A DNA stretch of 58,948 nucleotides from a virus (Duplodnaviria > Caudoviricetes). Shown here piece after piece: positions 173-46,917 of the stretch. The position numbers and the translations under genes were made by a program. Where the stretch lies: positions 1 to 58,948 of the IMG/VR virus record IMGVR_UViG_3300005512_000035. One strand, 5' to 3'. The notes under the pieces are model-generated. The model saw only the letters and a program-made list of their open reading frames with translations. It did not search any database and was not told the DNA's origin. Positions within the stretch are counted from its first letter, which is position 1, and each line of letters starts with the position of its first letter.

Positions 173-185
173 CGATTAGCAAAAT
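14..185 (+). repeat. 172-bp direct repeat, copy 1 (copy 2 at 57744..57915)
   Basis: Identical by direct comparison except nt 80 (G) vs 57810 (A); both flanks diverge. Confidence 0.95.
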
Positions 186-3820: not shown

Positions 3821-3916
3821 GGTTGCGAGTTTTGACTGTTATGAGTACTATGAATACAGCGCAGATCAGGCTTCGCGACCCTGCATATCGCCCGATACAA
3901 CATTAAGGTGGATAGA

Positions 3917-5605: not shown

Positions 5606-6549
5606 TGGCTGAAAAACAAGAGATAATCCAACGCGAAGCCCCCGGAATTGAGGCCTATAAAATTGGCCTCATGGAACAAGCCAAGGCTCTAACAGCAAGC
5701 GAGCCTACAGGTGGTCTACCTGCTATCCAAGCGGCAGGGCTCGACCCCATGCAAACGCGAGCGGCGAGTCTAGCAACGCAAGGGGTAGGTACTTACCAAC
5801 CGTACCTTCAAAGCGCACAGAGCGCGTTTACAAGCGGTATTGGTAGCCTCACCGCTACACAGCCACAGGCTATTGCTAATCTGCAAGGTTCTATGGGTCA
5901 ATACGATCCAAGCCAAGCGGCGGCGTTCATGAATCCGTATCAACAAGCGGTTGCAAACGAAATCAACCGTGCGTACAACATACAGCAGTCACAGTTGGGA
6001 CAAAGACAAGCCCAAGCGGGTGCGTTCGGTGGTAGTCGTGCGGCGATTGAACAATCTGAACTCAACCGCAACCGTGCCGATGCTTTGGCAAGAGCGCAAG
6101 CAGAAAACTTTATGCAAGCGCAACAAGCGGCGATGAGTGCTTACGAGCAAGGTCAGCAACGCGCTCAGCAAGCAGGTTTGGGTATCGGTCAGCTTGGTGT
6201 ACAGGCGGCAGGTCAGCTTGGTCAGCTCGGCGTACAGCAAGCGGCACTCGGTGAACTTGGTTCTAACCTCGGCCGTCAAGACATACAAACTCTTTCAACG
6301 CTTGGCGAACAACAACGTCAAGTTGCTCAACAAGGTCTGGAAGCGCAACGTCAAACCCAGATGCAAGATATTTACGAGCCATACCAACGTCTCGGCTTCT
6401 ACAGTGATATCTTGCGTGGTGCGCCTACGACGCAACAAACGCTCAGCGTTTCTACAGCACCTCAGCCTAGCCTGTTGAATCAGGTTGTTGGTGGTGCGGC
6501 AACAGGTCTTGGTCTTTACGGTGCGGCAAATAAAGCGGGGATTGTTTAA
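5605..6549 (+). CDS. Gln/Ala-rich DNA-transfer/ejection protein
   Basis: FMNPYQQAV and AGAFGGSR motifs; C-terminal hydrophobic Gly-rich helix. Confidence 0.7.
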   Translation: MAEKQEIIQREAPGIEAYKIGLMEQAKALTASEPTGGLPAIQAAGLDPMQTRAASLATQGVGTYQPYLQSAQSAFTSGIGSLTATQPQAIANLQGSMGQYDPSQAAAFMNPYQQAVANEINRAYNIQQSQLGQRQAQAGAFGGSRAAIEQSELNRNRADALARAQAENFMQAQQAAMSAYEQGQQRAQQAGLGIGQLGVQAAGQLGQLGVQQAALGELGSNLGRQDIQTLSTLGEQQRQVAQQGLEAQRQTQMQDIYEPYQRLGFYSDILRGAPTTQQTLSVSTAPQPSLLNQVVGGAATGLGLYGAANKAGIV

Positions 6550-9140: not shown

Positions 9141-9151
9141 GAGGTGTAGTA

Positions 9152-10375
9152 ATGGCAGGACCAGTCACAATCGGACCTCCAACGGAAGAGGATGTACAGG
9201 CTTACCAAAACAGCCAGACATTCGTTAATCCAACGGATCCTCGTTTACCTAGTCAGCAGGGAGCAGTTACGCCTACCCAAGCTGAGATAGAAACAACTAC
9301 ACGGGTTTTGCCTAGCCGTATGACTGGTCAGGGTGAACTATCAGCGACCGCTCAAGCCTTGGGTATGGAAGAAGGCGATACCAGTGGTTTTGATATGGGC
9401 TTGCTTGGTGACTTCAGCCGTGGCTTTAACGACCTGATCCTATATTTACCAGATGCCGCTATCAACGCCGTTGCAGGTAGTCTTGAGTATGCGGGTGTTG
9501 TTGAGCCAGGAACCGTTGATCGTAACTTTCTCAGCCGTGTGTTTAACAGTAGTGATTACGAGTCACAAAAGGTTATTATCCCGCACCTTTTACACTACGG
9601 TACAGGTAGATATGCAGGTCTACAGCCAGAAGAAGGTAAAGCCGCAGAGTACACTCGTGCGGCAGGTCAAGGTACGGCAATGGCCGTGCCGTTTATCGGT
9701 ATGCAAAGTAGGGCGGCTCAAGCTACGGCGGCGGCTCCTAGCGCACTGAGAGCAACTACAGCACCGAGCCAACTAACTACTCGGGAACTGGTTGCTGAGT
9801 CAATGCTCAATCCATACCGTGTTGCTCCAGGATCTACTGCCGCTTTGGAAGCAGGATTCGGTGCGGCGTCTGCTACAGGCGGTGAAGTTGGTGAAGATAT
9901 CGGCGGGGAAACTGGTCGTGCGATTGGTAGCCTCATCCCACTTGCTCCTGCCGCGATTTACTACGGAGGTAAAAACCTTCCCGGAGCCAGACTTATTACA
10001 TGGACTAAAGATAAAATAGGTGGTGGGATAGACGAAGCTCAAGTTCGTGCAGGCAAAAAAGCTCCCGGAGAAGGAGAGCGTGGTCAAAAAGCACAGGGCG
10101 AACTGAACGCAGAAGTCCAAGCGGCGGCGGCAACACCAGAAGGTCAAGCAAACGTTCAACGCGCTATTGATATTGAAAACCGCTTGAACCCATACGCAGA
10201 TGAGCCGATTACGTTAAGTCCTGCAGAAACCACGATGGACGCACCTTTGTTGGCTACCCAAACCCGCCTAGAAACAACAGGTAGTCCTGAGTTTACCCGC
10301 GCCAACAGTCAGCGCAAGTTGAATGCAATTACGGCGGCTATTCGTTTCCGTGATGGAGAACTGACAGTTCATTGA
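9152..10375 (+). CDS. Large internal virion protein, N-terminal part (possibly split)
   Basis: RBS GAGGTG upstream; ends abruptly, with a second frame opening at 10365. Confidence 0.55.
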   Translation: MAGPVTIGPPTEEDVQAYQNSQTFVNPTDPRLPSQQGAVTPTQAEIETTTRVLPSRMTGQGELSATAQALGMEEGDTSGFDMGLLGDFSRGFNDLILYLPDAAINAVAGSLEYAGVVEPGTVDRNFLSRVFNSSDYESQKVIIPHLLHYGTGRYAGLQPEEGKAAEYTRAAGQGTAMAVPFIGMQSRAAQATAAAPSALRATTAPSQLTTRELVAESMLNPYRVAPGSTAALEAGFGAASATGGEVGEDIGGETGRAIGSLIPLAPAAIYYGGKNLPGARLITWTKDKIGGGIDEAQVRAGKKAPGEGERGQKAQGELNAEVQAAAATPEGQANVQRAIDIENRLNPYADEPITLSPAETTMDAPLLATQTRLETTGSPEFTRANSQRKLNAITAAIRFRDGELTVH

Positions 10376-10397
10376 GTTCGAGTTCAAAGATGGCAGG

Positions 10398-11966
10398 ATG
10401 TCTTTCCAAGACTGGAAAACGTTCCGTGACCAAGTTAGCTCAGAAATCGGTAAGAACATGGCAGTGGGTAACAAGACTGCTGTGCGTCAACTTGCTATTC
10501 TTGCAAAAGAATTAGACAACATGGGTACGGCGTATGGTCGTACCAATGAGAAGTTTGAAGAGTTCCGTGCATGGTACGACACAAACGTGATCCTGCCTTA
10601 CGAGCGTAGTGGTGTAATTAAACTCACTGCAAAAGCTCCTGGAGGAACAGCAGACCGTCCTGAGTATTACCTACCTGACGAGCGTGTAGCGGCTACTTTC
10701 TTGGAAAACTCCAACACAGCGCGGCAGTGGATGACATTGTTTGGTGAAACACCTGCTCGCATGGATAACATCAAGGCAACGGTACTAGATCAAATCCGCA
10801 ACCAAGCCTTTGTTCGTAGTAAAGGTACATTTGACCCAACGAAGGTAGATCAGTACATTAACAAGAACCGTGATGTGTTGACGGAGCTTGGCTTAATTGA
10901 CGATATCACCAATACGCAAACACTTGTTGATGACCTGGTCGGGCGTCAAGCTGACCTCACCGCACGGCGTAGGGTGATTAGCAGTAACCTACTGTTTAAA
11001 GCGATTGGTCGCGCACAGAATACAGACAGCCCAGAAAAACTGTTGAACGAAGCACTCAACAGTCCTGCGCTAATGCGCGAACTGAAAACAGCAGTGGTCA
11101 AAGATACAGACCAACTGAGCGCAACCGAAGCAGGGGAAGCGTTCCGTGCCGCAGTCACACAGCGTTTGTTAGCCAAAGCACCAGATGCAATGGAGAATCC
11201 TGCCAAGTTCAAGCAGTGGCTTTCTGACAACGAACGTGTGCTTGACGCCGCATTTGATAAATCTCATGTTGATAACATGTATCTCATTGCAGACCTTGCT
11301 GAGCGTATCCTCGCAACAGGTATGCCGAAGGGTACAGGGGTACAACAAGAAAACCTGATTACTCGCATTACAAATAGTTTGGGTACTACTCCTGCGGGTG
11401 TATCCAACCGTTTTATTGCGGTACAAGAAGGACGTCTTGGTCCACGGGCGGCGATCGGTTATGTACTTAGCCGTAGTATCAGCGCACAATCAAGCGCACG
11501 ATCAGATGCCTTGTTCCGTGAAATGATGTTCGATCCTAATCTTGCAAAAGCATTGGCAACGGAAGCTCCTGAGTCAACAGCCCCATTGCAGATATCGCCT
11601 GCTCAAAAGCGGGTGATCAATACTTACTTGTTCAACTTAGGTATTGACTACGGTGAAGATATAACAGGTCCAGGAGCAGAAGAAACAGTCATATTGACCC
11701 CTAATGTTCCAGAAAACCCTGTTACAACTCAACCACCAACTCCGGCTCCCCCGCCGCCACTTCCGCCAAGAAGTTATACGCCTCTTGGCGTCCCGCAAGG
11801 TAGCCAACCCGCTCCCCCTGCGCCGACTGTAACACCAACAAGCACAAGTGGTGGAATCACATCGCTTGCTCCCGGACAGCAAAAGGCTTCCGCATCAGAG
11901 TTATTTCCTTTTGACCCGACTCTAGCGGCAATCGAGCGTAGAGGCGGGGCTAACCGAATGACATAA
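10398..11966 (+). CDS. Large internal virion protein, C-terminal part
   Basis: Frame open from 10365; weak RBS; Pro-rich tail ending LFPFDPTLAAIERR. Confidence 0.55.
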   Translation: MSFQDWKTFRDQVSSEIGKNMAVGNKTAVRQLAILAKELDNMGTAYGRTNEKFEEFRAWYDTNVILPYERSGVIKLTAKAPGGTADRPEYYLPDERVAATFLENSNTARQWMTLFGETPARMDNIKATVLDQIRNQAFVRSKGTFDPTKVDQYINKNRDVLTELGLIDDITNTQTLVDDLVGRQADLTARRRVISSNLLFKAIGRAQNTDSPEKLLNEALNSPALMRELKTAVVKDTDQLSATEAGEAFRAAVTQRLLAKAPDAMENPAKFKQWLSDNERVLDAAFDKSHVDNMYLIADLAERILATGMPKGTGVQQENLITRITNSLGTTPAGVSNRFIAVQEGRLGPRAAIGYVLSRSISAQSSARSDALFREMMFDPNLAKALATEAPESTAPLQISPAQKRVINTYLFNLGIDYGEDITGPGAEETVILTPNVPENPVTTQPPTPAPPPPLPPRSYTPLGVPQGSQPAPPAPTVTPTSTSGGITSLAPGQQKASASELFPFDPTLAAIERRGGANRMT

Positions 11967-11978
11967 CTGGAGGTTGTC

Positions 11979-12470
11979 ATGGATCCCATATCCGCGTTAG
12001 CGGCGGCGACCACGGCCTTCAATGTTATCAAGAAAGGCTTTGAGGTCGGTAGGGATCTAGAGTCAATGGCGGGTGACATTGGTCGTTGGATGAGTGCCGT
12101 CAATACTGTCAAAGATGCTGAGCAAGCCGCTCGTAACCCACCTTTGTTCAAGAAACTTGTGTTCGCTAAGTCTGCTGAAGAAGAAGCCATGCAAATGTTC
12201 ATGGCTAAAAAGAAAACAGAAGATATGCGTAAACAACTGCGAGAAGTGATTATCTACACCCGTGGCATGGATGCGTGGAATGATTTGATAAAAATGGAAG
12301 GAGATATCCGTAAACAACGCCAAGAAGCTGTGGATAACCAAGCAAAAGCTCGTAAAGACTTTTTTGAAAAGATTGCCATATCAATTCTAATAGTTTGTGG
12401 AGTAGGGTTAACGATTTGGTTCTTCTGGTTTATTTCGGTTGCTGTAGAAAACAAACAGGCAGGACTTTAA
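11979..12470 (+). CDS. Conserved phage membrane-anchored protein
   Basis: GGAGG RBS; MDPISALAAA...IKKG N-terminus; C-terminal transmembrane helix. Confidence 0.7.
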   Translation: MDPISALAAATTAFNVIKKGFEVGRDLESMAGDIGRWMSAVNTVKDAEQAARNPPLFKKLVFAKSAEEEAMQMFMAKKKTEDMRKQLREVIIYTRGMDAWNDLIKMEGDIRKQRQEAVDNQAKARKDFFEKIAISILIVCGVGLTIWFFWFISVAVENKQAGL

Positions 12471-35725: not shown

Positions 35726-36151
35726 ATGGCAACAGTAAAGAAGTCAGCGGCAACTGCAAAAACTGCCACTCAGGTTGTTGAACTCAAGCGCACAGACGCA
35801 GAGGTCAGCTACGAAGACATCTGGGCATTCGTTCAGCAACATGCGGGCGGCAACCTGCACAATGTTGTTATTGAACCGCTTGCCAATGTTGAGTTGGACA
35901 GCGACGCGCCTGTACCGTTCGGTTATAACGGCAAGCGCGGCGGCGTCCGCGAAACCATCCAGAACTGGATGCTACACGGGGTGGAAGGTGACCGTCGCCT
36001 CAGCGTAGTTCTTAGCAAGGCGAAGCCTCTGGGTCACAGCAGTAAGAAGCCTGTCTGCTTACATGCACTCCTCAACGGGGGTTACAGCACTAGCTCCTCT
36101 GTGTGGGGTACAGGTTACGTTCGCCTCGTCGTCCAACCAACCGCCAAGTAA
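35726..36151 (+). CDS. Early protein, paralog B
   Basis: Shares SYE.IWAFVQ.HAGGN, APVPFGY.GK.GGVR.TIQ.WML.GV.GD and LGHS.KKPVCLHAL..GGYS with paralog A. Confidence 0.8.
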   Translation: MATVKKSAATAKTATQVVELKRTDAEVSYEDIWAFVQQHAGGNLHNVVIEPLANVELDSDAPVPFGYNGKRGGVRETIQNWMLHGVEGDRRLSVVLSKAKPLGHSSKKPVCLHALLNGGYSTSSSVWGTGYVRLVVQPTAK

Positions 36152-36192
36152 CTGGCACACAGCGGGGGGCTCGGGTCCCCCGCACCCCCCTA

Positions 36193-36218
36193 AGCCCGCC
36201 ACCGTGCGGGCTTTTTTC
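36193..36218 (+). terminator. Rho-independent terminator
   Basis: AGCCCGC-caccgt-GCGGGCT-TTTTT. Confidence 0.75.
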
Positions 36219-36413
36219 GTGCGTCCCCCGCGAGAGACCTCTCATAGTTAAATCGTTAGGTTTAACTAAGTTTTGCACAAATCTTCGAGTGACTTTTTAC
36301 ATTTTTCGATAGTGAACTGTACTCGATCAAAAGCCGAGACCCCCACCCCCCTAATACAGTAGAATGCTCATAGGTTCATTGCCCTAGAAAAATTTTCGAT
36401 ATATTGTGCAATT

Positions 36414-36602
36414 ATGACGATTGACCCTGATTCATTTGATCTTGTAACTGTGGACGAGTGGCGCGAGTTGTGGAAAGACGAACCACGTTCCATTGTTCCT
36501 GCGGAGTTACCCGATGATAAAGTCCCTTTTTTGATTGTGGGATTTTGTCCAGATTTGGGTGAGTGTGTTGTCATGGGTGTGGGCAATGTTACCTTGCACT
36601 AG
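36414..36602 (+). CDS. Hypothetical protein
   Basis: 62-aa ORF just upstream of terL. Confidence 0.4.
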   Translation: MTIDPDSFDLVTVDEWRELWKDEPRSIVPAELPDDKVPFLIVGFCPDLGECVVMGVGNVTLH

Positions 36603-36627
36603 AATGAAATAGACGGAGCGACGAACC

Positions 36628-38091
36628 GTGGATGTAGGGTTAATCCCAGAAGACCAGTTGCGTAAGTACGCGCATTTATTGGATAGAGCGCAAGAGATAC
36701 AGCAGGCTGAATCGAGTAAAGAGGACTTTATGGAGTTCTGTAAGACGGTTTGGCCTGAGTTCATTAGTGGACGCCACCATGCGATTATGGCGGAAAAGTT
36801 TAACCGGATAGCGCGAGGCGAGCTCAAGCGATTGATTGTGAATATGCCGCCGCGACATACAAAGAGTGAGTTTGGTAGTTACTTGTTACCTGCGTGGTTG
36901 ATGGGGCGACGCCCAACATTGAAGATTATGCAGACAACGCACACCGCTGAACTTGCATTCCGGTTCGGCCGTAAAGTGCGTAACTTGATGAACTCGTCTG
37001 AGTATACCAAGGTGTTTGAAAACGTGGAGCTCCGTGCGGATAGTCAGGCCGCAGGTCGATGGGAGACAAGTAAGGGCGGCGAATACTTTGCGGCGGGTGT
37101 CGGTGGTGCGGTGACCGGACGTGGTGCGGATTTGTTGATTATCGATGATCCGCATTCCGAGCAAGATGCGCTGAGTCCTACTGCGCTTGAGCATGCTTAC
37201 GAATGGTATACCTCGGGTCCCCGCCAACGCTTACAGCCAGGAGGCGCGATTGTCATTATCATGACGCGGTGGGCGGAGAATGATCTAACAGGGAAGTTGC
37301 TCCGCCAACAGGCTAGAGATGTACTGGCCGACCAGTGGGAAGTGGTCGAGTTTCCGGCGATCATGCCCGAAAGCGATGAACCACTATGGCCTGAGTTTTG
37401 GAACAAGAAAGATTTGCTTGCCGTTAAGGGTAGTTTGTCCGTCGGTAAGTGGGAAGCCCAATGGCAACAAAACCCAACCAGTGAACAGTCTGCTATACTC
37501 AAGCGTGATTGGTGGCAAACATGGGATAAAGATGATATCCCGCCGCTAGAATACATTATGCAGAGTTACGATACCGCTTACAGTAAAAAAGAGTCTGCCG
37601 ACTATAGCGCGATTACTACTTGGGGCGTGTTTTACCCTGAGGAGGGTGGTCCGCCGAACATTATTCTTGTTGATGCTAAACGCGGAAGGTGGGACTTTCC
37701 TGAACTGCGGCGCATTGCGCTAGATGAATACAAGTATTGGGATCCGGAATGCGTGTTGATAGAAGCTAAGGCTAGTGGTATGCCGCTCACGCAAGAACTC
37801 CGCAATATGGGTATACCAGTAACCAACTACAGCCCGTCTCGTGGCAACGACAAGTTCACTCGCGTAAATTCAATTGCGCCGATTATGGAATCTGGGTTAG
37901 TATGGGCTCCAGATACCCGATGGGCAGAAGAAGTTATCGAAGAGTGCGCGGCGTTTCCGGCAGGCGAAAATGACGACTTCGTAGATACGGTGACGCAAGC
38001 CCTTCGTAGATTTAGAGAGGGTGGTTTTATTCAGCATCCGGAAGACTACGAAGATGATGAAGCCGTACCTGTGCAAAGGATTTATTACTAA
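36628..38091 (+). CDS. terL: Terminase large subunit
   Basis: NMPPRHTKSE (Walker A), TGRGADLLIIDDPH (Walker B), MTRW, QSYDTA, IEAKASG, DDFVD nuclease motif. Confidence 0.95.
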   Translation: MDVGLIPEDQLRKYAHLLDRAQEIQQAESSKEDFMEFCKTVWPEFISGRHHAIMAEKFNRIARGELKRLIVNMPPRHTKSEFGSYLLPAWLMGRRPTLKIMQTTHTAELAFRFGRKVRNLMNSSEYTKVFENVELRADSQAAGRWETSKGGEYFAAGVGGAVTGRGADLLIIDDPHSEQDALSPTALEHAYEWYTSGPRQRLQPGGAIVIIMTRWAENDLTGKLLRQQARDVLADQWEVVEFPAIMPESDEPLWPEFWNKKDLLAVKGSLSVGKWEAQWQQNPTSEQSAILKRDWWQTWDKDDIPPLEYIMQSYDTAYSKKESADYSAITTWGVFYPEEGGPPNIILVDAKRGRWDFPELRRIALDEYKYWDPECVLIEAKASGMPLTQELRNMGIPVTNYSPSRGNDKFTRVNSIAPIMESGLVWAPDTRWAEEVIEECAAFPAGENDDFVDTVTQALRRFREGGFIQHPEDYEDDEAVPVQRIYY

Positions 38092-40478
38092 TGGCTATGC
38101 AACCCCGCCCAAGCAATGTAGATCGCAGTCTCCTGCAAGCTCCTAACGACACTTTCAGTCTTGAAGAAGAAATGCTCCGCGAACAAGAACAACAGTTTTT
38201 GGACGATGATATTTCGGTAGAGATAGAAGAAGATGGCGAAGGTGGGGCAGAAATCACCTTCGGTGAAGAAGAAACAGAGTTTGGTGTTGAGCCAGATGAT
38301 TTTTATGACAACCTTGCTGAGTATGTCAGTGATGATACGCTTGCGGGCGTAGCTACTTATGTCCTCGATAGCGTTGAAGAAGATAAGTCAAGCCGCGAAG
38401 ATTGGGTAGAAACCTACACTAAAGGTCTAGATTTGCTCGGTTTGAAGTACGAAGCCCGTACCGAACCGTTTGATGGCGCAACAGGCGTCATTCACCCCGT
38501 ATTGAATGAGGCTGTGACTCAATTCCAAGCGGGTGCGTACAAAGAGATGCTCCCTAGTAAGGGTCCAGTACGCGCAAATATCGTAGGGGTAGCGTCTCCA
38601 GAGCTCGAAAAACAGGCACAACGCGTCCAAGATTACATGAACTACATGATCATGTACCGCATGGAGGAGTACGAGCCTGAGTTTGACCAGATGTTGTACT
38701 ACTTGGGACTTGCAGGTAGCGCATTTAAGAAGGTTTACCGTGATGATACGCTCGCAAGACCTGTGAGCAAGTTCGTTCCTGCCGAAGATATTGTTGCACC
38801 GTACACTGCAACTGACCTAAAAAGCGCGGAACGCATCACTCACGTCCTTAAAATGTCAACAAACGAGCTCAGAAAGCTCCAAGTTAGCGGTTTTTACAAA
38901 GATGTTGACGTCCAAGCTGATGAAGAGTCGGCTGAGAGCGAAATCCAAGAGGCTTATGACAAGCTCGAGGGTCGTGAAAGCACAGGTAGTGACGAAGAAA
39001 CGACGTTATACGAGTGCCATTGCTATTTGGACTTGATGGAGTACCCAGATTTAGACGCAGAAGGCGAAGAAACAGGTATTAAGCTACCGTATATCGTCAC
39101 TGTCAGCTCTGAGAGCCAAGAAGTATTGTCAATCCGCCGTAATTTCCGTGCGGATGACCCATTAAAGAACAAAATACCTCATTTTGTCCACTACAAGTTC
39201 ACTCCAGGACTCGGTTTTTACGGTTTTGGACTTATCCACCTGCTTGGTAACCTCAGCCGGACTGCTACTGCCAACCTGCGTCAGCTAATTGACGCCGGAA
39301 CACTCAGTAACATGCCTGCGGGCTTCAAAGCGCGTGGTTTACGCATTGCAGATGACCAAAATCCTCTCCAACCAGGAGAGTTTAGGGATGTTGACGTTCC
39401 TGGTGGCGATTTACGAACTTCGTTGATGCCCCTGCCGTACAAAGAGCCTAGTGCAACGCTAATGCAGTTGATGGGCTTTGTTATTGAATCTGCTCAACGC
39501 TTTATTGGCACAACAGATATGGGCGTGGGCGATGGCAGACAGGAAATGCCAGTTGGAACAACTATTGCACTCCTTGAGCGCGGAGCTCGGATCGTCAGTG
39601 CAGTGCATAAACGGTTGCATGCGAGCCTCAAGCAAGAACTTAAGATGCTCGCAGAGCTGTTTGCTCAAGACCCTACACCTTACCCTTATCAGGTCGGAAC
39701 TGACCAACAGATTAAGCCGCAAGACTTTGACGATCGGGTGGACATTTTGCCCGTCAGTGACCCCAACATCTTCAGCATGTCGCAAAGGGTGGTGTTAGCC
39801 CAAGAGCAACTCAAACTCGCACAAGCCGCACCTGAGTTACACAACATTCACGAGGCGTATCGCCGCGTGTACGAAGCCTTGGGTGTGAACAATATTGAAG
39901 GGCTATTGAAACCTGCACCTGTACCACAGCCGATGGATCCCTCTTCTGAGAACCAGTTTGCAAGCCAAGCGGCGGCAGGTCAGGGCAAAATGCAGGCGTT
40001 CCCAGAGCAAGACCACGATGCTCACATGGCGGTACACCTTGCTTACATGCAGTCCAAAGTTGCACAGATGCAACCTGCGGTACTCATGACGCTAGAAAAA
40101 CACATCTATGAGCATATCGGTATGAAGGCTCAGGTATTGCACGATCAACAGATGGCGCAAAACCCACAAGCACAGCAACAACCACCAGAAGAACATGCCA
40201 AGATGATTGCTCAGCTACAGGCACAGTTGATTCAACAGTATCAACAGCAAATGCCACCACAGCCACAGCAAGACCCGCTTGTACAGATCAAGCAACAAGA
40301 GTTGGCACTGCGCGAGCAAGAAATGCAGATGGATCAACAAAGCGATCAGCAAAAACTTCAGTTGGATGCACAACGGGCGGCGCAAAACGCAGATATCGCC
40401 AGAGAGCGTATTCAGTCTACAGAAGATATTGCCAACATGCGGGCGCAGATTGCTCTGCAACGTCAGCAAGGTAGATAA
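38091..40478 (+). CDS. Portal protein (P22-like)
   Basis: Follows terL; HPVL.EAVTQFQA, GSAFKKVY, GFYGFGL, PVGTT.AL; Gln-rich coiled-coil tail. Confidence 0.9.
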   Translation: MAMQPRPSNVDRSLLQAPNDTFSLEEEMLREQEQQFLDDDISVEIEEDGEGGAEITFGEEETEFGVEPDDFYDNLAEYVSDDTLAGVATYVLDSVEEDKSSREDWVETYTKGLDLLGLKYEARTEPFDGATGVIHPVLNEAVTQFQAGAYKEMLPSKGPVRANIVGVASPELEKQAQRVQDYMNYMIMYRMEEYEPEFDQMLYYLGLAGSAFKKVYRDDTLARPVSKFVPAEDIVAPYTATDLKSAERITHVLKMSTNELRKLQVSGFYKDVDVQADEESAESEIQEAYDKLEGRESTGSDEETTLYECHCYLDLMEYPDLDAEGEETGIKLPYIVTVSSESQEVLSIRRNFRADDPLKNKIPHFVHYKFTPGLGFYGFGLIHLLGNLSRTATANLRQLIDAGTLSNMPAGFKARGLRIADDQNPLQPGEFRDVDVPGGDLRTSLMPLPYKEPSATLMQLMGFVIESAQRFIGTTDMGVGDGRQEMPVGTTIALLERGARIVSAVHKRLHASLKQELKMLAELFAQDPTPYPYQVGTDQQIKPQDFDDRVDILPVSDPNIFSMSQRVVLAQEQLKLAQAAPELHNIHEAYRRVYEALGVNNIEGLLKPAPVPQPMDPSSENQFASQAAAGQGKMQAFPEQDHDAHMAVHLAYMQSKVAQMQPAVLMTLEKHIYEHIGMKAQVLHDQQMAQNPQAQQQPPEEHAKMIAQLQAQLIQQYQQQMPPQPQQDPLVQIKQQELALREQEMQMDQQSDQQKLQLDAQRAAQNADIARERIQSTEDIANMRAQIALQRQQGR

Positions 40479-40480
40479 CT

Positions 40481-40885
40481 GTGCCTGATGGACGTGTGCT
40501 GATCGATGCGTTCCAAGTTTTATGTGACTCCGAATATCACGCTGAATGGGGAGAGCAGAAGATCGCTGATTACATCATCGGTCCTTGGCTCAATGACCGA
40601 TTACATGTAGTGTATGTAGAAGGCCAACCGGAGTGCATGATTACTTGGACATACTTGCCTCCAGACAGGGAGCGTAAGTACATAGATAATCCTTCAAGTC
40701 TAAATGCTTTAGATTTTGAGTATCAATACGGTAGGCTTTGGGTTATAGATTATGCCGCGCCCTATGGCTCGTGCAAACAGTGCGCTAAGGAGATCCGTAA
40801 AATGGCTCGTTCTTGGTGGGGTAGAGGAGTAAAAGCGCGGATCTTCCGCACTGAACAAAATAGATTAGGTTGGATGGTGACATGA
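40481..40885 (+). CDS. Toxin-activating acyltransferase (HlyC/TAAT family) homolog
   Basis: SEYH matches the catalytic SxxH; GQPECMITW; RLWVIDYAAPYG matches LWxxDxxAPFG. Confidence 0.75.
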   Translation: MPDGRVLIDAFQVLCDSEYHAEWGEQKIADYIIGPWLNDRLHVVYVEGQPECMITWTYLPPDRERKYIDNPSSLNALDFEYQYGRLWVIDYAAPYGSCKQCAKEIRKMARSWWGRGVKARIFRTEQNRLGWMVT

Positions 40886-41652
40886 GATTCTACAACAGAC
40901 GCAAGTTTAGAGACGATTTGTTTGGTTGGGAAGAGCAACCATGCGATTATGATCAGTTTGAAGAATTAAAGTATTGCTTTGGCGGCGGCGGCGGAGGCGG
41001 CGGTGGCGGTGGGTCGAATAAGCCACAAGTTGATTCAAAACCTAAAAACACATATAATTTCAATCAGTCTAAGTCTACTAACCGTCCTGACGATGCTCCT
41101 GCTCCTACTTCCTCCAATGTGGGGGTTGTTAGTAAGTCTCCTGCACCTAGTTATGGATACGATTATCCAGGGGCTGATGCGTTTGCCACTAAAGTAGGAC
41201 AATCGGCCGCGCCCACTGCTAGTTATACCATGGACGCAACCGGAGTAGGGATGCCTACCACTCTGTCTCAATCTGGTATTGGTGGGTTGGGTGCTACTAC
41301 CAGTTACGGGTCATTGGCTGATATCGAGGCGGCGAGAGACCCGATAGGATCTGCGATTGGCAATCTCAACTACAATGCCCCAACAGGCGCACTTGGGTTT
41401 GGGCAGTCTATGTATGATCAAGTAAAAGATCAGTACGCTGACATACGAGATAAAGTAGATGCGGCAAGGACTTTTAGTATTGGTCCAGGAGATCTCACAT
41501 TAGGCGGCAGTCTAAACCCAAATAACCCAAGTATTTCCGGTACATATTCTGTACAAGACCCATTTGGTCTAGGCGGTGAGCTTTCTGCTAAAGGGACGTA
41601 TGGGACTAAAAGTGGGATAGGTGGCTTGCTGTCCTACACCAAACTGTTTTAA
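40882..41652 (+). CDS. Poly-Gly protein with beta-rich, Phe-terminated C-terminus
   Basis: ATGA-coupled to the acyltransferase; KYCF followed by 11 Gly; ends GGLLSYTKLF. Confidence 0.7.
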   Translation: MRFYNRRKFRDDLFGWEEQPCDYDQFEELKYCFGGGGGGGGGGGSNKPQVDSKPKNTYNFNQSKSTNRPDDAPAPTSSNVGVVSKSPAPSYGYDYPGADAFATKVGQSAAPTASYTMDATGVGMPTTLSQSGIGGLGATTSYGSLADIEAARDPIGSAIGNLNYNAPTGALGFGQSMYDQVKDQYADIRDKVDAARTFSIGPGDLTLGGSLNPNNPSISGTYSVQDPFGLGGELSAKGTYGTKSGIGGLLSYTKLF

Positions 41653-41661
41653 GGAGTAGTC

Positions 41662-41820
41662 ATGAACGGTAAAAAAGGTCAAACCTGCCAAGCCTGCGAA
41701 GAAGGCTATAGAACGGTGCTGAATGCGCGTACTGATACGGCTACTCGTGAAGCCAAAGAAAAGATTTCTCGTGGGCGTGGTCAAGCTCTGACAGGCATTA
41801 AGTTCCGTGGGGTAAAATAA
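41662..41820 (+). CDS. Small basic protein
   Basis: AAGGAG RBS; 52 aa ending RGRGQALTGIKFRGVK; not in the ORF track. Confidence 0.6.
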   Translation: MNGKKGQTCQACEEGYRTVLNARTDTATREAKEKISRGRGQALTGIKFRGVK

Positions 41821-42137
41821 TGACGGAAGAAATGCAAAAGTACGACATGAATGGTAATGGGAAGTTAGACCCAGAAGAACGTGAAATCATGCTTGAAGAC
41901 CGTCGTCGTAGAATGATGGATGATGATGCACAGCGTGATGCTCAACGTCGTATGGCGTGGTTTGCTTTGTTTGGGCTCTTACTGTATCCGTTTGGTATTT
42001 TTATGGCCGATGTAATGTCTATGGGCAAAGCGGCTGAATTGATTGCAGATATCGCACCAACTTACTTTGTGTCGATTTCTGTTTTGGTGTCAGCGTTCTT
42101 CGGAGCTAGTGCGCTAAAGGCCAGAAAGGAGAGTTAG
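41820..42137 (+). CDS. Membrane protein with EF-hand-like loop (holin/antiholin candidate)
   Basis: DMNGNGKLDPEE plus two transmembrane helices. Confidence 0.6.
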   Translation: MTEEMQKYDMNGNGKLDPEEREIMLEDRRRRMMDDDAQRDAQRRMAWFALFGLLLYPFGIFMADVMSMGKAAELIADIAPTYFVSISVLVSAFFGASALKARKES

Positions 42138-42341
42138 TTGATTTTGGTGTTCGCGCTGATGGTTGTCTTGGATGGGAAACCACAGCCTCAAGACACTTCA
42201 TATTGGTACGACATCAATCGATGCAATTATTTTGCCGCTAGAGTAGGCAAATGGAGATACAACTATTGGACAAAGCGTAAAGTAGACGCTTACTGTGTGC
42301 CTAAGAAAGTAAAGGAAGGCTCAGTTGAAGTGTTCAGGTAA
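42138..42341 (+). CDS. Small hypothetical protein
   Basis: Hydrophobic N-terminus; CNYFA...AYCVP. Confidence 0.55.
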   Translation: MILVFALMVVLDGKPQPQDTSYWYDINRCNYFAARVGKWRYNYWTKRKVDAYCVPKKVKEGSVEVFR

Positions 42342-42434
42342 AGGAAAAGCAACATGTTAAAACCGATCGATTTGCAGTTGATACTTACAGTGTCATCATT
42401 GTCTTTCATTACAGCTTGGATTGTGGGGTAAGCT

Positions 42435-42830
42435 ATGCTACAGGCTTTAATAGGACCCGTAACTGGAATACTTGATAAGTTTATCGAGGACAAAGACGCT
42501 AAAAATGCAATGGCTCATGAGATTGCGACGATGGCCGAAAAAGCCGCTCATGAAGCGGCTATGGCACAGGTTGAAGTCAATAAAGCAGAAGCTCAACATC
42601 GGAGCATTTTTGTGGCGGGGTGGCGTCCATTTATTGGTTGGACTTGTGGTATTGCTCTCGCTTATCACTTTGTTGCCAATCCTCTTATTATGTTTGCTGT
42701 TACAGTTGCAGGAGTGGATATCCCTGCTCTACCGTCGTTTGACATGGACTCGCTGATGACAGTTCTATTGGGCATGCTCGGTTTAGGTGGTATGCGTAGC
42801 TTTGAGAAAATGAAAGGACTGACAAAATGA
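42435..42830 (+). CDS. Holin (3TM, GTA-holin-like)
   Basis: EVNKAEA.H.S.FVAGWRPFIGW...L.GMLGLGGMRSFEK. Confidence 0.8.
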   Translation: MLQALIGPVTGILDKFIEDKDAKNAMAHEIATMAEKAAHEAAMAQVEVNKAEAQHRSIFVAGWRPFIGWTCGIALAYHFVANPLIMFAVTVAGVDIPALPSFDMDSLMTVLLGMLGLGGMRSFEKMKGLTK

Positions 42831-43279
42831 GTTTTAAACTATCACAACGTAGCCTAGATAAGTTAGAAGGTGTAGACGAGCGTCTGGTAAACGTCGTCAA
42901 ACGCGCCATAGAGCTCACAGACACCGATTTCGGGGTAATCTGTGGGTTGCGTACCGAAGAAGAACAACGCGCTCTGGTGGAGAAGGGAGCGTCTAAGACG
43001 ATGAAGTCAAAGCACATTGAAGGCAGAGCGGTAGATTTGATGGCTTATGTCGGCGGTCGTGGTTGTTGGGAACTTAGTGTGTACGACAATATTGCTGAGG
43101 CTGTTCAACAAGCGGCCTCTGAGCAGGGCGTTGCTATCCGTTGGGGTGCGGCTTGGAACATAAATGATGTTCGTGAGTGGGAGGGAACCATGGAAGAAGC
43201 GATGAACTTCTATGTAGATACTCGCCGCGCTGAAGGGAAACGCCCTTTTATTGATGCACCACATTTTGAGTTAGTGTGA
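42827..43279 (+). CDS. Endolysin, peptidase M15 family
   Basis: S...L.GV...L, G.RT.EEQ, SKH..G.AVD, RWG, DAPHFEL. Confidence 0.9.
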   Translation: MSFKLSQRSLDKLEGVDERLVNVVKRAIELTDTDFGVICGLRTEEEQRALVEKGASKTMKSKHIEGRAVDLMAYVGGRGCWELSVYDNIAEAVQQAASEQGVAIRWGAAWNINDVREWEGTMEEAMNFYVDTRRAEGKRPFIDAPHFELV

Positions 43280-43476
43280 TGAATGACCTTTACATTTATG
43301 AAAACATGCTTAAGAATGTCAGGGAACGGCAAAAGTCAGTAACGGAAGCTATCTGTTATGGTCCTGTTGCAGACTTTACCGCCTTCAAGGAACTCCGAGC
43401 TAGACTCGGGGAGCTTGCTCAAACTGAACAGGATCTTAAAGACCTGCTAAACAAGGTGTCTGATACAGATGACTAA
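43279..43476 (+). CDS. Hypothetical protein
   Basis: Short helical ORF upstream of GroES. Confidence 0.6.
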   Translation: MNDLYIYENMLKNVRERQKSVTEAICYGPVADFTAFKELRARLGELAQTEQDLKDLLNKVSDTDD

Positions 43477-43960
43477 AACATTACTCGTACCTGATTATAT
43501 CGCCGAAGAACGGGCGAAAAAAGAACAACCAGAATCAAAGGGCAAAAAGGGTATCTTAGAAGAGGCGTATGTAGCCCCTGAAGAGCGTTACCTAGACCCA
43601 AGCAAATTACCAGAATCCGCTGTTGATCGATTACCGCAACCAACGGGATGGCGACTTTTATTGTTGCCGTTTCAAGGACGGAAAAAGACTGAAGGCGGAA
43701 TCTTACTACCAGACGAAGCCCGTGAGCGTGAGCAAGTGGCTACTGTCTGCGGATATGTATTACGGGTTGGTCCGCTTGCGTACCAAGACCCAAATAAATT
43801 CGGAGAAGATGCCGAGCCTTGGTGTAAAGAAGGCGATTGGGTTATCTTCGGCCGATATGCCGGAAGTCGTTTCAAGATTGAGGGTGGGGAAGTTCGGCTC
43901 CTCAACGATGACGAGGTACTTGCTCGCATCGGTAGCCCAGATGATATCTTGCATCTATAA
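43469..43960 (+). CDS. groES: Co-chaperonin GroES-like
   Basis: PTGWRLL...TEGGILLP...V.RVGP...GDWV.F.RYAG...RLLNDDEVLA. Confidence 0.9.
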   Translation: MTKTLLVPDYIAEERAKKEQPESKGKKGILEEAYVAPEERYLDPSKLPESAVDRLPQPTGWRLLLLPFQGRKKTEGGILLPDEAREREQVATVCGYVLRVGPLAYQDPNKFGEDAEPWCKEGDWVIFGRYAGSRFKIEGGEVRLLNDDEVLARIGSPDDILHL

Positions 43961-43975
43961 CATGGAGAGAGCACC

Positions 43976-44893
43976 ATGCCAGAAGAAGTAAAAAACCAAC
44001 TCGAGGATCAGGAAACTGAAAACGAGATCGAGGTTGAAGTCGAGGAAGACGGGGATACGGAATCACAGGAAGCATCAGCTTCCGGAGAATCCGACTCTCC
44101 AGAACCCGCCAAAGCCTCCGGAGACGACGAGCTAGAAAATTATGGCGAAGGCGTCCAGAAACGTATTAGTAAGCTCACTGCAAAAATGCGGGAAGCTGAA
44201 CGTCGTGAGCAAGCCGCGTTGGAATACGCTAAGTCCGTACACAGACAGCTCGAAGAAGCAAACACACGGACAACTACTCTAGACAACTCTTTTGTAACTG
44301 AGTTTGAAGGACGTATCACATACCAAGAGCAAGCATTGCGTAACCAGTTGCGTGACGCTATTGATCGTGGTGATGTTGATGGTCAGGTAGAAGCGCAACG
44401 TCAGCTCGCTCAGATCGCGACAGAAACACAGCGTCTTAACTACATCAAGTCTCAACGTGAACAGCAGGCACAACAGCCTGTACAGCCTCAGGTTCAACAG
44501 CAAGTCCAACAGCCACAACAACCGCAACCAGACCCGAAAGCTGAGGCTTGGGCAGAGCGGAATGAGTGGTTTGGGCAAAACGAGCCTATGACACTTACCG
44601 CGTTTAGTATCCATAAGCAGTTGGCAGAGAACGAAGGGTTCGACACAACTAGCGATGAATACTATGCCGAGCTAGACCGCAGAATGCGTGTTGAGTTTCC
44701 GCATAAGTTTGCTGATTCCTCAGCATCAAGGGCGACTAGAAGTGGTCCTGCCGTTGCCGGAGCAACTCGTAATTCGAGCAAAAATAGCTCAGGTAAGGTA
44801 AAATTATCAAAATCTCAAGTTGCTATTGCGAATAAACTTGGGGTAAGTTTAGAACAATATGCGAAGCAAGTCGCTCGCATGCAAAATTCGTGA
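43976..44893 (+). CDS. Capsid scaffolding-like protein
   Basis: Acidic N-terminus, coiled coil, C-terminal LSKSQVAIA.KLGV..EQYAK. Confidence 0.7.
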   Translation: MPEEVKNQLEDQETENEIEVEVEEDGDTESQEASASGESDSPEPAKASGDDELENYGEGVQKRISKLTAKMREAERREQAALEYAKSVHRQLEEANTRTTTLDNSFVTEFEGRITYQEQALRNQLRDAIDRGDVDGQVEAQRQLAQIATETQRLNYIKSQREQQAQQPVQPQVQQQVQQPQQPQPDPKAEAWAERNEWFGQNEPMTLTAFSIHKQLAENEGFDTTSDEYYAELDRRMRVEFPHKFADSSASRATRSGPAVAGATRNSSKNSSGKVKLSKSQVAIANKLGVSLEQYAKQVARMQNS

Positions 44894-44903
44894 GGAAGGT
44901 TAC

Positions 44904-45365
44904 ATGACCGATAGAAGCCCACGCTCTACCCAATCAAGGGAAAAAACAAGCCGCGCTAAACCGTGGCGACCACCGTCTACACTGGACGCTCCACCTGCTC
45001 CAGAGGGGTACGTTCATCGTTGGATCCGTGAATCTATCATGGGTGTTGACGATAAGAAAAACCTTTCTGCCCGCCTCCGCGAAGGCTTTGAACTTGTTCG
45101 CGCTGATGAGTACCCTGATTTTGAAGCCCCTACTGTTCAGGACGGCAAACATGCCGGAGTGATTGGGGTTGGAGGTCTGGTACTTGCTAGATTCCCTGAA
45201 GAGACTCGTTCTCAGCGCACATCACATTTCCGTCAGCAAACGGCTGACCAAATGACCGCTGTAGATAATGATCTCATGAGGGAGCAACATCCGTCTATGC
45301 CTATCAGCAAACCTGAAAGGCAGTCTCGTGTAACTTTCGGCGGAAATGGTTCCGGCGATAACTAA
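44904..45365 (+). CDS. Conserved head-module protein
   Basis: W.PPS.LDAP..PEGY.HRWIR...REG.E.V...GGLVLA. Confidence 0.7.
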   Translation: MTDRSPRSTQSREKTSRAKPWRPPSTLDAPPAPEGYVHRWIRESIMGVDDKKNLSARLREGFELVRADEYPDFEAPTVQDGKHAGVIGVGGLVLARFPEETRSQRTSHFRQQTADQMTAVDNDLMREQHPSMPISKPERQSRVTFGGNGSGDN

Positions 45366-45379
45366 AAAGGATCTGAGCT

Positions 45380-45997
45380 ATGGCAAATCTTGATGCCGCT
45401 TTTGGACTTCGTCCATACAAAATGCTCGGTGCAGGTGCAAACACTAATGGTGTCATGACCTTCAAAATCCAGACTAGCGCGACAGCGGGTACTTCCAGTG
45501 TTATTTACGAAGGTAGTCCTGTTATCCCTCTAGCCAATGGTATGGTTGACATCGTGGGAGCCGCCGCAGGCGGTACTGTACCTCTACTGGGTGCTTTCAT
45601 CGGTTGTAACTACATTGCACTTGATGGTACTCCAACGTTCACTAACAAGTGGCCTGGAACTTCAAGCGTAAAGTCAGGAACTGAGGCAACAGCCTTGGTT
45701 GCGGCACACCCTGATCAACTCTTCTTGATCAACTGTAACGCCGCCGCCGCTGATTCAGCGATTAACGCAAACGCTAACTTTGCAACTGCTACTTCTGGTG
45801 ATGCAACGACTGGTAAGTCATCTGCTGAACTGGCTGTATCAACTGTAAACACAACGAACACGCTAAACTTGCGTATTGTCGGTTATGAAGATTCTCCTTC
45901 TAACGATGACGCAACTGTGGCAGGTCGTTTGGCGATTGTTATGATTAACAACCACTTCTATCGTTACGGTGCTAACGGTACTGGTGCAGGTGTGTAA
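45380..45997 (+). CDS. Capsid decoration/cement protein
   Basis: MAN.DA.FGLRP start, beta-rich; directly upstream of the major capsid gene. Confidence 0.65.
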   Translation: MANLDAAFGLRPYKMLGAGANTNGVMTFKIQTSATAGTSSVIYEGSPVIPLANGMVDIVGAAAGGTVPLLGAFIGCNYIALDGTPTFTNKWPGTSSVKSGTEATALVAAHPDQLFLINCNAAAADSAINANANFATATSGDATTGKSSAELAVSTVNTTNTLNLRIVGYEDSPSNDDATVAGRLAIVMINNHFYRYGANGTGAGV

Positions 45998-46008
45998 GGA
46001 GATAGGAA

Positions 46009-46917
46009 ATGGCTATTACTCGCTCCCAACTCCTGAAAGAACTTGAGCCAGGACTCAACGCTCTCTTCGGTATGGAGTACGATCGGTATGACAATGAGCA
46101 TGCTGAAATCTTTGAGACTGAAACTTCGGATCGTGCATTCGAAGAGGAAGTAATGTTGGCAGGCTTCGGCCAAGCACCTGTTAAGGGTGAAGGCGCGGCA
46201 GTCACTTATGACTCTGCAAACGAAGCGTTCACCTCACGCTATACGCACGAAACTATTGCACTAGCGTTTGCGATTACTGAAGAGGCGGTAGAGGACAACC
46301 TTTACGACCGACTCAGCTCTCGCTACACTCGTGCATTGGCTCGTTCAATGGCGAACACTAAGCAAGTTAAGGCGGCATCTGTTCTTAACAACGCATTTGA
46401 TAGCAACTTTGCTATCGGCGATGGTAAAGAGCTGTGTGCTACTGACCACCCAACTGTGGGCGGCGGTAACTTCCGCAATGAGCTGTCAACTGCGGCAGAC
46501 TTGAACGAAACATCACTTGAGCAGTCGTTGATTGACATCGCGGCGTTCATTGATGAGCGTGGTCTGAAAATTGCTCTGCAAGGGCGTAAGCTGATTATCC
46601 CACCTGCGCTTCAGTTTGTTGCTGAACGTTTGATGGCTTCTAATCTGCGTCCGTCTACAGCAGACAATGATGTCAACGCACTACGCAACATGGGTATGCT
46701 TCCAGATGGTTACGTCGTTAACCACTTCTTGACAGACCCAGATGCGTTCTTCATCAAGACTGATGCGCCTAACGGCTTTAAGCATTTTGTTCGTAGCCCA
46801 ATCAAGACGTCTATGGAAGGCGACTTCGAAACAGGCAACGTTCGCTACAAAGCTCGTGAGCGTTACAGCTTCGGTGTGTCTGACCCACGTTGTGTGTTTG
46901 GCTCTCCAGGAGCATAA
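46009..46917 (+). CDS. Major capsid protein (Mu gpT-like HK97 fold)
   Basis: MAITRSQLLKELEPGLNALFG, K.EG, ITEEA.ED, DF.TGN.RYKARERYSFG.SD.R. Confidence 0.9.
   Translation: MAITRSQLLKELEPGLNALFGMEYDRYDNEHAEIFETETSDRAFEEEVMLAGFGQAPVKGEGAAVTYDSANEAFTSRYTHETIALAFAITEEAVEDNLYDRLSSRYTRALARSMANTKQVKAASVLNNAFDSNFAIGDGKELCATDHPTVGGGNFRNELSTAADLNETSLEQSLIDIAAFIDERGLKIALQGRKLIIPPALQFVAERLMASNLRPSTADNDVNALRNMGMLPDGYVVNHFLTDPDAFFIKTDAPNGFKHFVRSPIKTSMEGDFETGNVRYKARERYSFGVSDPRCVFGSPGA

Follow-up and report, generated by a model that had tools for sequence, protein, structure and literature searches.

Introduction

Toxin-activating acyltransferases (TAATs) such as HlyC, CyaC and ApxC (Pfam PF02794) take acyl-acyl carrier protein (acyl-ACP) as their acyl donor and acylate internal lysines in a Gly-Lys context. 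Two other kinds of protein that must engage a membrane, the N-myristoylated entry proteins of non-enveloped eukaryotic viruses and the bacterial lipoproteins made by Lgt, Lsp and Lnt, carry a lipid at their N-terminus or close to it, with a flexible Gly/Ser tether behind the lipid; both are modified by host enzymes of families other than the TAATs. TAAT catalysis relies on a His/Asp dyad, and one TAAT, CdiC of class IV contact-dependent inhibition systems, lipidates a lysine (Lys1467) in the receptor-binding domain of the very large, secreted protein CdiA; this modification strengthens binding to the target outer membrane, into which the lipid has been proposed to insert (excerpts of PMC8510554). 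Here we describe a two-gene locus that pairs a compact TAAT homologue, open reading frame 1 (ORF1; 40481..40885, plus strand), with a Gly-rich protein, ORF2 (40882..41652, plus strand). The window, by which we mean the whole stretch of DNA analysed, is IMG/VR record IMGVR_UViG_3300005512_000035, the complete genome of a marine phage, of 58,948 bases (CheckV completeness estimate 100%).

A second set of described systems comes from podoviruses. T7 gp13 and its counterparts, the internal virion proteins (IVPs) of type A, are acetyltransferase-like by HHpred and non-structural, and they precede an ejection protein, IVP-B; morphogenesis requires the IVP-A proteins, which do not stay in the finished virion (Hardies et al., excerpts of PMC4819975). 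According to the same excerpts, lysins adjoining podovirus ejection proteins are often entry enzymes. In P22, the first 20 residues of the 229-residue ejection protein gp7 are removed before assembly (excerpts of PMC4992974 and a GenBank note).

We propose that ORF1 is a phage-adapted TAAT that acylates ORF2, and that ORF2 is probably a lipidated, ejection-type virion protein that aids genome delivery. We put the probability of this reading at slightly under one half (about 0.47).

Results

ORF1 is a member of the TAAT family

ORF1 encodes 134 residues, with a GTG start and a TGA stop. In its single close relative, a 31,462-base viral contig, the protein is 97% identical and begins with ATG at the same position. 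ORF1 matched the Pfam HlyC family (PF02794) at 41.5 bits (curated cut-off 25, E 1.4e-10) and at 40.9 bits in a six-frame search of the genome. It matched no other Pfam family, and its one match in PHROGs was a weak hit to phrog_20210. Sequence similarity extended to ApxC itself (PDB 4whn; phmmer E 1.2e-5). An AlphaFold2 model built from an 18-row alignment had a mean predicted local distance difference test score (pLDDT) of 94 and a predicted TM-score (pTM) of 0.87. When this model was searched against the PDB with Foldseek, the top three matches were ApxC chains of 4whn (E 3e-10 to 9.5e-10, TMq 0.76-0.81). The best of them, 4whn_A, aligned with an E-value of 3e-10, a TMq of 0.81 and a root-mean-square deviation of 2.1 Å, and the next-ranked match had an E-value of 0.017.

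An earlier note on this DNA, made from the sequence alone, had reported the S-x-x-H and L-W-x-x-D-x-x-A-P-x-G motifs of TAATs. Both are present, as S17-x-x-H20 and L86-W-x-x-D90-x-x-A-P-x-G96, and the predicted fold agrees with the HlyC-type assignment made there. His20 (codon at 40538..40540, plus strand) aligned to the conserved catalytic His of ApxC, and Asp90, in the W-x-I-D-x-x-A-P-x-G motif (codon at 40748..40750, plus strand), aligned to the conserved catalytic Asp. These results demonstrate by Pfam match, by an ApxC-like GNAT-type fold and by the His/Asp dyad that ORF1 is a member of the TAAT/HlyC family.

Conservation across relatives bears on whether the active site is maintained. 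When 1.84 billion representative proteins were searched exhaustively with HMMER (E <= 0.001), 80 relatives of ORF1 were recovered, mostly 110-200 residues long. Viral loci were collected by scanning IMG/VR with an 18-relative alignment, which matched 107 stretches; 101 of these encoded a relative, and 80 loci were retained. Ser17 and His20 were each found in all 58 unique viral homologues aligned at that position (of 64 in total, 6 rows being gapped at His20), and Arg123 was present in 58 of 61. All three positions lie outside the pattern used for the scan. Trp87, Ile89, Asp90, Ala93 and Pro94 were invariant among viral homologues, partly by construction, because the scan pattern included the motif around Asp90 that these five residues make up. 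From its sequence, then, ORF1 is apparently an active, catalytically competent TAAT. No acyl carrier protein gene (PF00550) was detected in the 58,948-base genome, so host ACP would be needed as the source of acyl chains.

A tblastn search with ORF1 found no match in 50,697 GenBank phage records, and searches with other family members found one, Roseobacter phage CRP-235. Neither ORF1, ORF2 nor the three small ORFs after them matched a defence system in PADLOC.

ORF2 carries an N-terminal leader and a Gly-rich run

ORF2 (256 residues) begins inside the end of ORF1: the ORF1 stop and the ORF2 start overlap in ATGA (40882..40885, plus strand), an arrangement indicative of translational coupling. 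The leader, residues 1-33 (40882..40980, plus strand), ends in K-Y-C-F and is followed at once by a run of exactly 11 Gly codons (40981..41013, plus strand; 10 in the relative). The earlier note was thus accurate in describing an ATGA-coupled, 256-residue ORF with a leader ending in these four residues and 11 glycines, as it was in placing ORF1 directly after the portal gene (38091..40478, plus strand; phrog_1216, E 5.6e-50; Pfam SU10_portal), from whose stop the ORF1 start is separated by 2 nt. Charged and aromatic residues characterise the leader, which lacks a hydrophobic core. By eye it contains neither a hydrophobic signal peptide nor a lipobox, which distinguishes ORF2 from Sec/Lgt lipoproteins, in which both precede the Cys. 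The protein is rich in Gly, Ser, Ala, Asp and Thr (16% Gly, 13 Lys, 2 Cys), with Lys30 two residues before the leader Cys, and its C-terminus is a Gly-rich hydrophobic tail finishing in Phe.

ORF2 has no confident predicted fold. An AlphaFold2 model from a 9-row alignment had a pLDDT of 34.9, and the ESM Atlas model had a pLDDT of 0.50 with structural look-alikes all below a TM-score of 0.3. ORF2 matched nothing in Pfam, PHROGs, NCBIfam or PADLOC, and a sequence search of the PDB returned poly-Gly noise alone. A word-based search, tblastn against phages and a metagenome scan found no relative of ORF2 beyond the 31,462-base contig, whose protein is 89% identical. Between these two genomes, which form the only pair available, the ratio of nonsynonymous to synonymous substitution rates (dN/dS) was 0.16 for ORF2 and 0.15 for ORF1, indicating purifying selection on both. 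In the same single pair the leader was the most constrained part of ORF2 (dN 0.012, dS 0.37) and the C-terminal quarter the least.

The pair is conserved across viral lineages

We next considered the protein encoded downstream of each viral TAAT. Downstream ORFs were called for every locus, and exceptions were inspected by hand; four of the 80 loci end at a contig edge, leaving 76 assessable. The pairing of TAAT genes with such a partner, whose conservation in viromes the earlier note had offered as a check, was found in 75 of the 76, where the downstream protein has a Gly/Asp/Ser-rich N-terminal stretch. A strict motif, in which a Cys followed by Phe or Tyr precedes a Gly-rich run inside the first 70 residues, occurred in 42 loci and a relaxed form retaining the Cys in 11, so that the leader ends in Cys-aromatic in 53 of 76. 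Seven loci have a homologous leader in which Val, Tyr or Arg replaces the Cys. A further 15 are leaderless, starting M-G-G-G-G-G, M-S-G-D-P-E-G or M-G-S-D-S-S and running directly into Gly/Asp/Ser-rich sequence. The emphasis that the earlier note placed on the Cys therefore holds for the majority class and fails for the 7 leadered loci without Cys and the 15 leaderless loci, all of which keep the enzyme.

The strict motif is specific to the partner. Of the 613 other ORFs in the same loci that reach 100 residues, 2 had it, one of the 2 being the mis-called real partner of locus L077; of the 102 window ORFs of that size, 1 had it, which is ORF2 itself. Near-duplicates are frequent among the 80 loci: the 74 called downstream ORFs carry 58 unique leaders, in about ten types. 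Overall, the pair is present in at least 101 viral stretches from about ten lineages, mostly marine podovirus-like phages and including a cultured roseophage.

In related phages, M-R-L-N...L-L-[YF]-C-F leaders are homologues of the window leader, which is a longer version of the commonest type, M-R-L-N...N-P-M-E-x-L-L-[YF]-C-F-G-G. In a nine-sequence alignment of this type, M1, D22, C32, F33, G35 and G36 were invariant. Gly/Asp/Ser-rich runs equivalent to the 11 glycines of ORF2 follow the leader in related loci. The 4-nt overlap between TAAT and partner was called directly in 23 related loci; elsewhere the earliest start was often a few codons further upstream. Partners range from 223 to 916 residues, and those of different lineages have only the N-terminal module in common, conserved C-termini being lineage-specific.

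Two candidates for a universal acceptor residue were rejected. A motif-adjacent Lys fails because 26 of 56 unique partner N-termini have no Lys from 15 residues before to 40 residues after the conserved boundary, and Cys fails because it is missing from the 7 leadered loci described above and from the 15 loci that have no leader.

Some partners carry further sequence features. In the first ~90 residues of the L006/L007 partner, the acidic stretch after the leader contains a direct repeat of a ~16-residue unit rich in Asp, Gly and Thr. In the partners of L010, L013, L020 and L059 this stretch contains a D-x-D-G-D-G-I-P-N-x-I-D motif, which may resemble calcium-binding thrombospondin type 3 repeats.

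The one exception to the pairing is L082, where the downstream gene encodes a true repeats-in-toxin (RTX) protein (Pfam HemolysinCabind, 153 bits). At L082:3701-8227 a TAAT is followed by an RTX protein of at least 1261 residues whose ORF reaches the end of the stored locus, and the L082 TAAT groups with bacterial ones; this locus may be a bacterial fragment or a phage with a classical RTX pair.

Partner type follows the TAAT tree, and leaders have been lost at a fixed boundary

We built a maximum-likelihood tree of 79 TAATs by a quick method. Only 149 alignment columns were kept, and many forks are for that reason poorly resolved. The window TAAT falls inside the clade with M-R-L-N leaders (SH-like approximate likelihood ratio test support 98). 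Partner types track the tree closely, requiring 15 label changes as compared with a minimum of 13 and a shuffled mean of 50.2.

In the tree, leaderless partners of the M-S-G-D type nest next to leadered ones of the M-I-H-D type, and the two have almost identical enzymes, which indicates that the leader was lost while the enzyme was kept. A second, independent loss is seen among cultured roseophages, where CRP-3 and CRP-738 partners have a leader ending I-V-F followed by G-G-G-G and the CRP-235 partner starts M-G-G-G-G-G. In both cases the new start codon falls at the aromatic|Gly boundary, showing the leader to be a separable module.

Bacterial relatives have different neighbours. A scan of one genome per prokaryote species yielded 82 relatives in 65 loci, mostly from Rhodobacteraceae and other Alphaproteobacteria, and 34 of the 65 loci were examined. 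In 11 of these 34, an upstream ORF contains 5-27 GG.G.D repeats, as expected of an RTX protein. In two bacterial loci the next gene shares 4 nt with the end of the TAAT gene and encodes a 581-residue membrane protein, a putative type I exporter judging by its N-terminal sequence. The Cys-Phe-Gly partner was absent from the 34 examined loci. In the tree, 21 of 22 TAATs from bacterial genomes were separate from most phage TAATs (support 91). One contig of a metagenome-assembled genome (L107) has a phage-type leaderless pair and clusters with the phage clade. From the RTX neighbours in bacteria and the distinct partner class in phages, we infer that the phage clade changed substrate relative to its bacterial kin.

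The pair is found in late-gene contexts

In PHROG annotations of 62 neighbouring proteins from 21 viral loci, the pair occurred in late-gene contexts only. The order TAAT, partner, large terminase, portal was found in L007, L012, L021, L030, L050 and L068. In L039 the order is terminase, portal, TAAT, partner, major head protein, and L045 and L046 have the same gene sizes. In L038 the pair follows a portal or adaptor gene. In L055 a gene for a T7 gp13-type internal virion protein (phrog_308, an identity that we checked with T7 itself) is followed by one gene and then by the TAAT and its partner. In L061 the pair follows tail fibre and virion-associated amidase genes, and in L065, L071, L078 and L079 the partner is followed by an endolysin. 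A protein of unassigned function, phrog_32327, closes the block of large structural proteins in the window (11979-12467, plus strand) and directly follows the TAAT partner in L050 (L050:5877-6359); its occurrence at both sites hints that, in other genomes, the pair occupies the place where the ejection-protein block ends.

The cultured example is Roseobacter phage CRP-235 (MZ892989.1; HMO-2011-type, grown on Rhodobacteraceae strain FZCC0040), in which tail fibre genes are followed by the TAAT gp30, the partner gp29 and a lysozyme. CRP-235 gp30 is annotated 'putative toxin-activating lysine-acyltransferase' and matched Pfam HlyC at 57.5 bits; gp29 is 491 residues long, starts M-G-G-G-G-G and lies 1 nt after gp30. 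This pair differs from ORF1/ORF2 in that it belongs to another phage group, its partner is leaderless and has no Cys, and its enzyme is ~22% identical to ORF1. In CRP-3 and CRP-738, proteins of 151-154 residues (CRP-3 gp28, L089:2336-2800; CRP-738 gp29, L090:2823-3278, annotated 'putative acyltransferase') occupy the TAAT position before partner homologues. They had no Pfam HlyC match, matched phrog_7642 alone and gave an hhalign probability below 1; they are either TAATs that have diverged very far or members of another acyltransferase family brought in to serve the same partner.

Downstream of ORF2 in the window lie, in order, three small ORFs, a holin, an M15 endolysin, GroES and head genes, all of those located here being on the plus strand. 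The first small ORF (52 residues, 41662-41820) has a C-x-x-C pair and no NCBIfam or PADLOC match. The second (105 residues, 41820-42137) has an N-terminal EF-hand-like calcium-binding loop (Pfam EF-hand_5, E 0.0017, below the cut-off), and its C-terminal half is hydrophobic by eye; possible roles are those of an antiholin or of a lysis regulator that senses calcium. The third (67 residues, 42138-42341) has a hydrophobic N-terminus and likewise no NCBIfam or PADLOC match. The holin (42435-42830; Pfam GTA_holin_3TM, 80 bits; phrog_3427) and the M15 endolysin (42827-43279; phrog_465) come next, followed by a GroES co-chaperonin (43469-43960; Pfam Cpn10, 46.7 bits) that, like those of HTVC023P-type phages, is extended at its N-terminus, here by 55 residues.

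The window portal is 50-56% identical to the portals of 023Pt_psg01, Pelagibacter phages HTVC027P and HTVC023P, and phage DSL-LC04. HTVC027P, 023Pt_psg01 and HTVC023P carry other small ORFs between portal and GroES. None of the three had a PF02794 match, and six HTVC023P ORFs near the portal and terminase genes were also without one.

No RTX repeat (PF00353) was found in the whole 58,948-base genome, and no transporter or C39-peptidase ABC exporter was found among the 58 window ORFs scanned with PHROGs, in keeping with the statement in the earlier note that RTX toxins and type I secretion are absent here. G+C content is even over the ORF1/ORF2 region. A promoter and terminator scan of 36000-46500 gave chance-level results. 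The strongest terminator-like hairpin of that region (36192-36213, plus strand; 8 pairs, 6 of them G-C, and a T run) lies just 5' of the terminase gene, and none comparable lies between the portal gene, ORF1 and ORF2. Elsewhere, a 298-residue protein (169-1062, plus strand; Pfam Gly_rich_2, 58.5 bits) adjoins tail-fibre-like genes found at both ends of the linear record, which appears to have been cut inside the tail module.

Discussion

ORF1 shares with HlyC, CyaC and ApxC its family, its fold, its His/Asp dyad and motifs, and the placement of its gene beside that of a presumed substrate. It also differs from bacterial TAATs. Most phage copies are shorter (133-145 residues, compared with 144-197 in the bacterial loci examined), the phage genome has neither an RTX protoxin nor an ACP gene, and the phage neighbour is a Gly-rich late protein without a conserved Lys near its motif. 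In function, a phage entry protein would be most closely paralleled by CdiC-CdiA, in which a TAAT has also been recruited to a non-RTX substrate. ORF2, however, is small, made in the cytoplasm and unrelated in sequence to CdiA, and cdiBAI- or CdiA-type families were found neither among the 58 window ORFs in PHROGs nor among 23 of these in Pfam.

In the mechanism that we propose, ORF1 and ORF2 would be co-produced late in infection, and ORF1 would transfer a fatty acyl chain from host acyl-ACP to ORF2. The modified region would probably be the N-terminal module, that is, the leader ending in hydrophobic-Cys-Phe together with the flexible Gly-rich tether. In one version, the Cys would be S-acylated where it is present. 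In another, the leader would be cut at the aromatic (Phe)|Gly boundary and the new N-terminal amine would be N-acylated; in leaderless partners, the equivalent Gly or Ser would be exposed after Met removal. Leaderless partners that start M-G resemble myristoylation substrates in that start. Lipidated ORF2 would most likely be a minor, probably membrane-active virion protein of the ejection type, and its acyl chain may help it to enter or hold the host envelope during genome delivery.

We favour an ejection-type role because the pair lies near portal or terminase genes in five lineages, because it lies in an internal-virion-protein operon in L055, because CdiC-CdiA offers a precedent, and because the pair is laid out like IVP-A/IVP-B. 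The earlier note had placed entry and exclusion side by side as possible purposes of lipidation, and of the two, gene context better supports entry.

Several observations pull the other way. The argument for ejection is one of layout and context, because no similarity to P22 gp7, T7 gp14 or T7 gp13 was found. The window also has a plausible ejection module elsewhere (3908-11963, including the phrog_4287 'DNA ejection protein'), so ORF2 would be an extra component. Moreover, the pair is accessory in its phage group, since no PF02794 match was obtained in the three closest cultured relatives. In the window it sits three small ORFs upstream of the holin and endolysin genes, a position that a lysis role would fit equally well. 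Finally, no acceptor residue is universal near the motif, given the scarcity of Lys, the loci that lack Cys and the loci that lack a leader.

The resemblance to podovirus internal virion proteins deserves separate comment. Like T7 gp13/gp14 and P22 gp14/gp7, in which an acetyltransferase-like gene of ~140-150 residues directly precedes an ejection protein of 196-229 residues, the window has a short acyltransferase gene directly before its partner gene, and the L055 pair lies two genes after a gp13-type gene. Mature P22 gp7 has a Lys/Gly-rich start and a Gly-rich hydrophobic tail ending in Phe; in ORF2 too, Gly-rich sequence comes after a leader, which would be removed in the version proposed above, and the C-terminus is Gly-rich with Phe as its last residue. 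The window pair differs from IVP-A/IVP-B pairs in that it follows a portal gene and not a tail-tube gene. Homology to T7 gp13/gp14 or P22 gp14/gp7 was considered and is unsupported, as all sequence tests were negative: ORF1 did not match the IVP-A families PF11090, PF11039, phrog_308 or phrog_651, ORF2 did not match the IVP-B families PF24072, PF25688, phrog_805 or phrog_598, an hhalign comparison of the ORF1 alignment with T7 gp13 gave a probability of 0.1, and BLASTP of ORF2 against P22 gp7 gave an E-value of 0.48. In Foldseek, IVP-A-like proteins gave only weak GNAT-like matches (E 0.06-0.7). We therefore describe the two systems as resembling each other in layout, by analogy and not by homology. 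A broader generalization, which we consider possible but doubtful, is that tailed phages lipidate a virion protein of their own, with the leader cut or absent and the Gly-rich N-terminus or an adjacent Cys acylated from host acyl-ACP, and that the IVP-A proteins T7 gp13 and P22 gp14 perhaps acylate the ejection proteins whose genes come directly after theirs.

Other explanations account for parts of these data. ORF1 could be a non-enzymatic assembly chaperone that binds the partner leader and escorts the partner into the procapsid without any lipid transfer. This is the kind of role proposed for the acetyltransferase-like, morphogenesis-essential IVP-A proteins T7 gp13 and P22 gp14, which are not found in virions (excerpts of PMC4819975) and for which no enzymatic role turned up in the literature searched, and tight gene coupling would suit stoichiometric binding. 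A pseudo-enzyme would not be expected, however, to keep the His, the Asp and the downstream Arg in essentially all viral homologues from about ten lineages, and since leaderless partners keep the enzyme, leader binding cannot be its sole job. On balance we judge a chaperone role unlikely.

A lysis role for the partner is a serious competitor, to which we give a similarly low probability. Under this explanation, the partner would accumulate in the cytoplasm and be released through holin lesions, and its lipid would attack the outer membrane, doing a spanin-like job. The window pair is indeed just upstream of the holin and endolysin genes, no spanin was recognised in the window by eye or by PHROG, and an endolysin or lysozyme gene comes immediately after that of the partner in L065, L071, L078, L079, CRP-235, CRP-3 and CRP-738. 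The lysins that stand beside podovirus ejection proteins are nevertheless often entry enzymes, as noted above from PMC4819975. In L039, L007, L012 and L055 there is no adjacent lysis gene, and the pair is found amid portal and capsid genes, before the terminase gene or in an internal-virion-protein operon; the partner, at 223-916 residues, is also unlike spanins or disruptins in length.

It is considerably less likely that the TAAT modifies a host envelope protein or another phage protein, with adjacency reflecting co-regulation only. Such a scheme would account for our seeing no acceptor residue that all partners share, but it fits poorly with adjacency in 75 of 76 assessable loci at varied genome positions and with a partner type that tracks the enzyme clade, and the substrate of a bacterial TAAT is likewise the product of a neighbouring gene. 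That ORF2 is a secreted bacteriocin-like product, or one resembling ribosomally synthesised and post-translationally modified peptides, whose double-glycine leader is cleaved on export is scarcely credible: E-L at -8/-7 and G-G at -2/-1 of the leader resemble the double-glycine leader consensus, but the 58 window ORFs scanned contain no exporter for it, partners reach 916 residues, 15 loci are leaderless and the pair lies among virion genes.

Phage-encoded lipidation of a phage protein in tailed phages was not described in the literature searched, which was mostly outside subscription journals and did not include supplements. Two mentions of phage TAATs were found. One is the abbreviation 'HlyC' in a figure legend of the HTVC023P preprint (excerpts of bioRxiv 10.1101/2019.12.14.876532), and the other is how CRP-235 gp30 is annotated in GenBank. 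In the paper reporting CRP-235, 'acyltransferase' has 0 occurrences. The enzyme family and the idea of a non-RTX substrate are thus known, and the phage partner class and its module of leader, Cys-aromatic and Gly-rich tether appear to be undescribed.

The pair is common to many lineages, including a cultured roseophage, and its function can therefore be tested at the bench now. Acylation of the phage partner would add a further class to the known TAAT substrates, RTX toxins and CdiA, and the short tag formed by the leader, the Cys-aromatic and the Gly-rich tether may serve for targeted protein lipidation. If the partner is an ejection protein, lipidation would provide a chemical mechanism by which ejection proteins engage the host envelope, and it would offer a testable hypothesis for the function of the T7 and P22 IVP-A genes, to which no biochemical role had been assigned. 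If tailed phages do lipidate a virion protein of their own in this way, they would offer a parallel, among the viruses of bacteria, to the way in which non-enveloped animal viruses use myristoylated proteins for membrane penetration.

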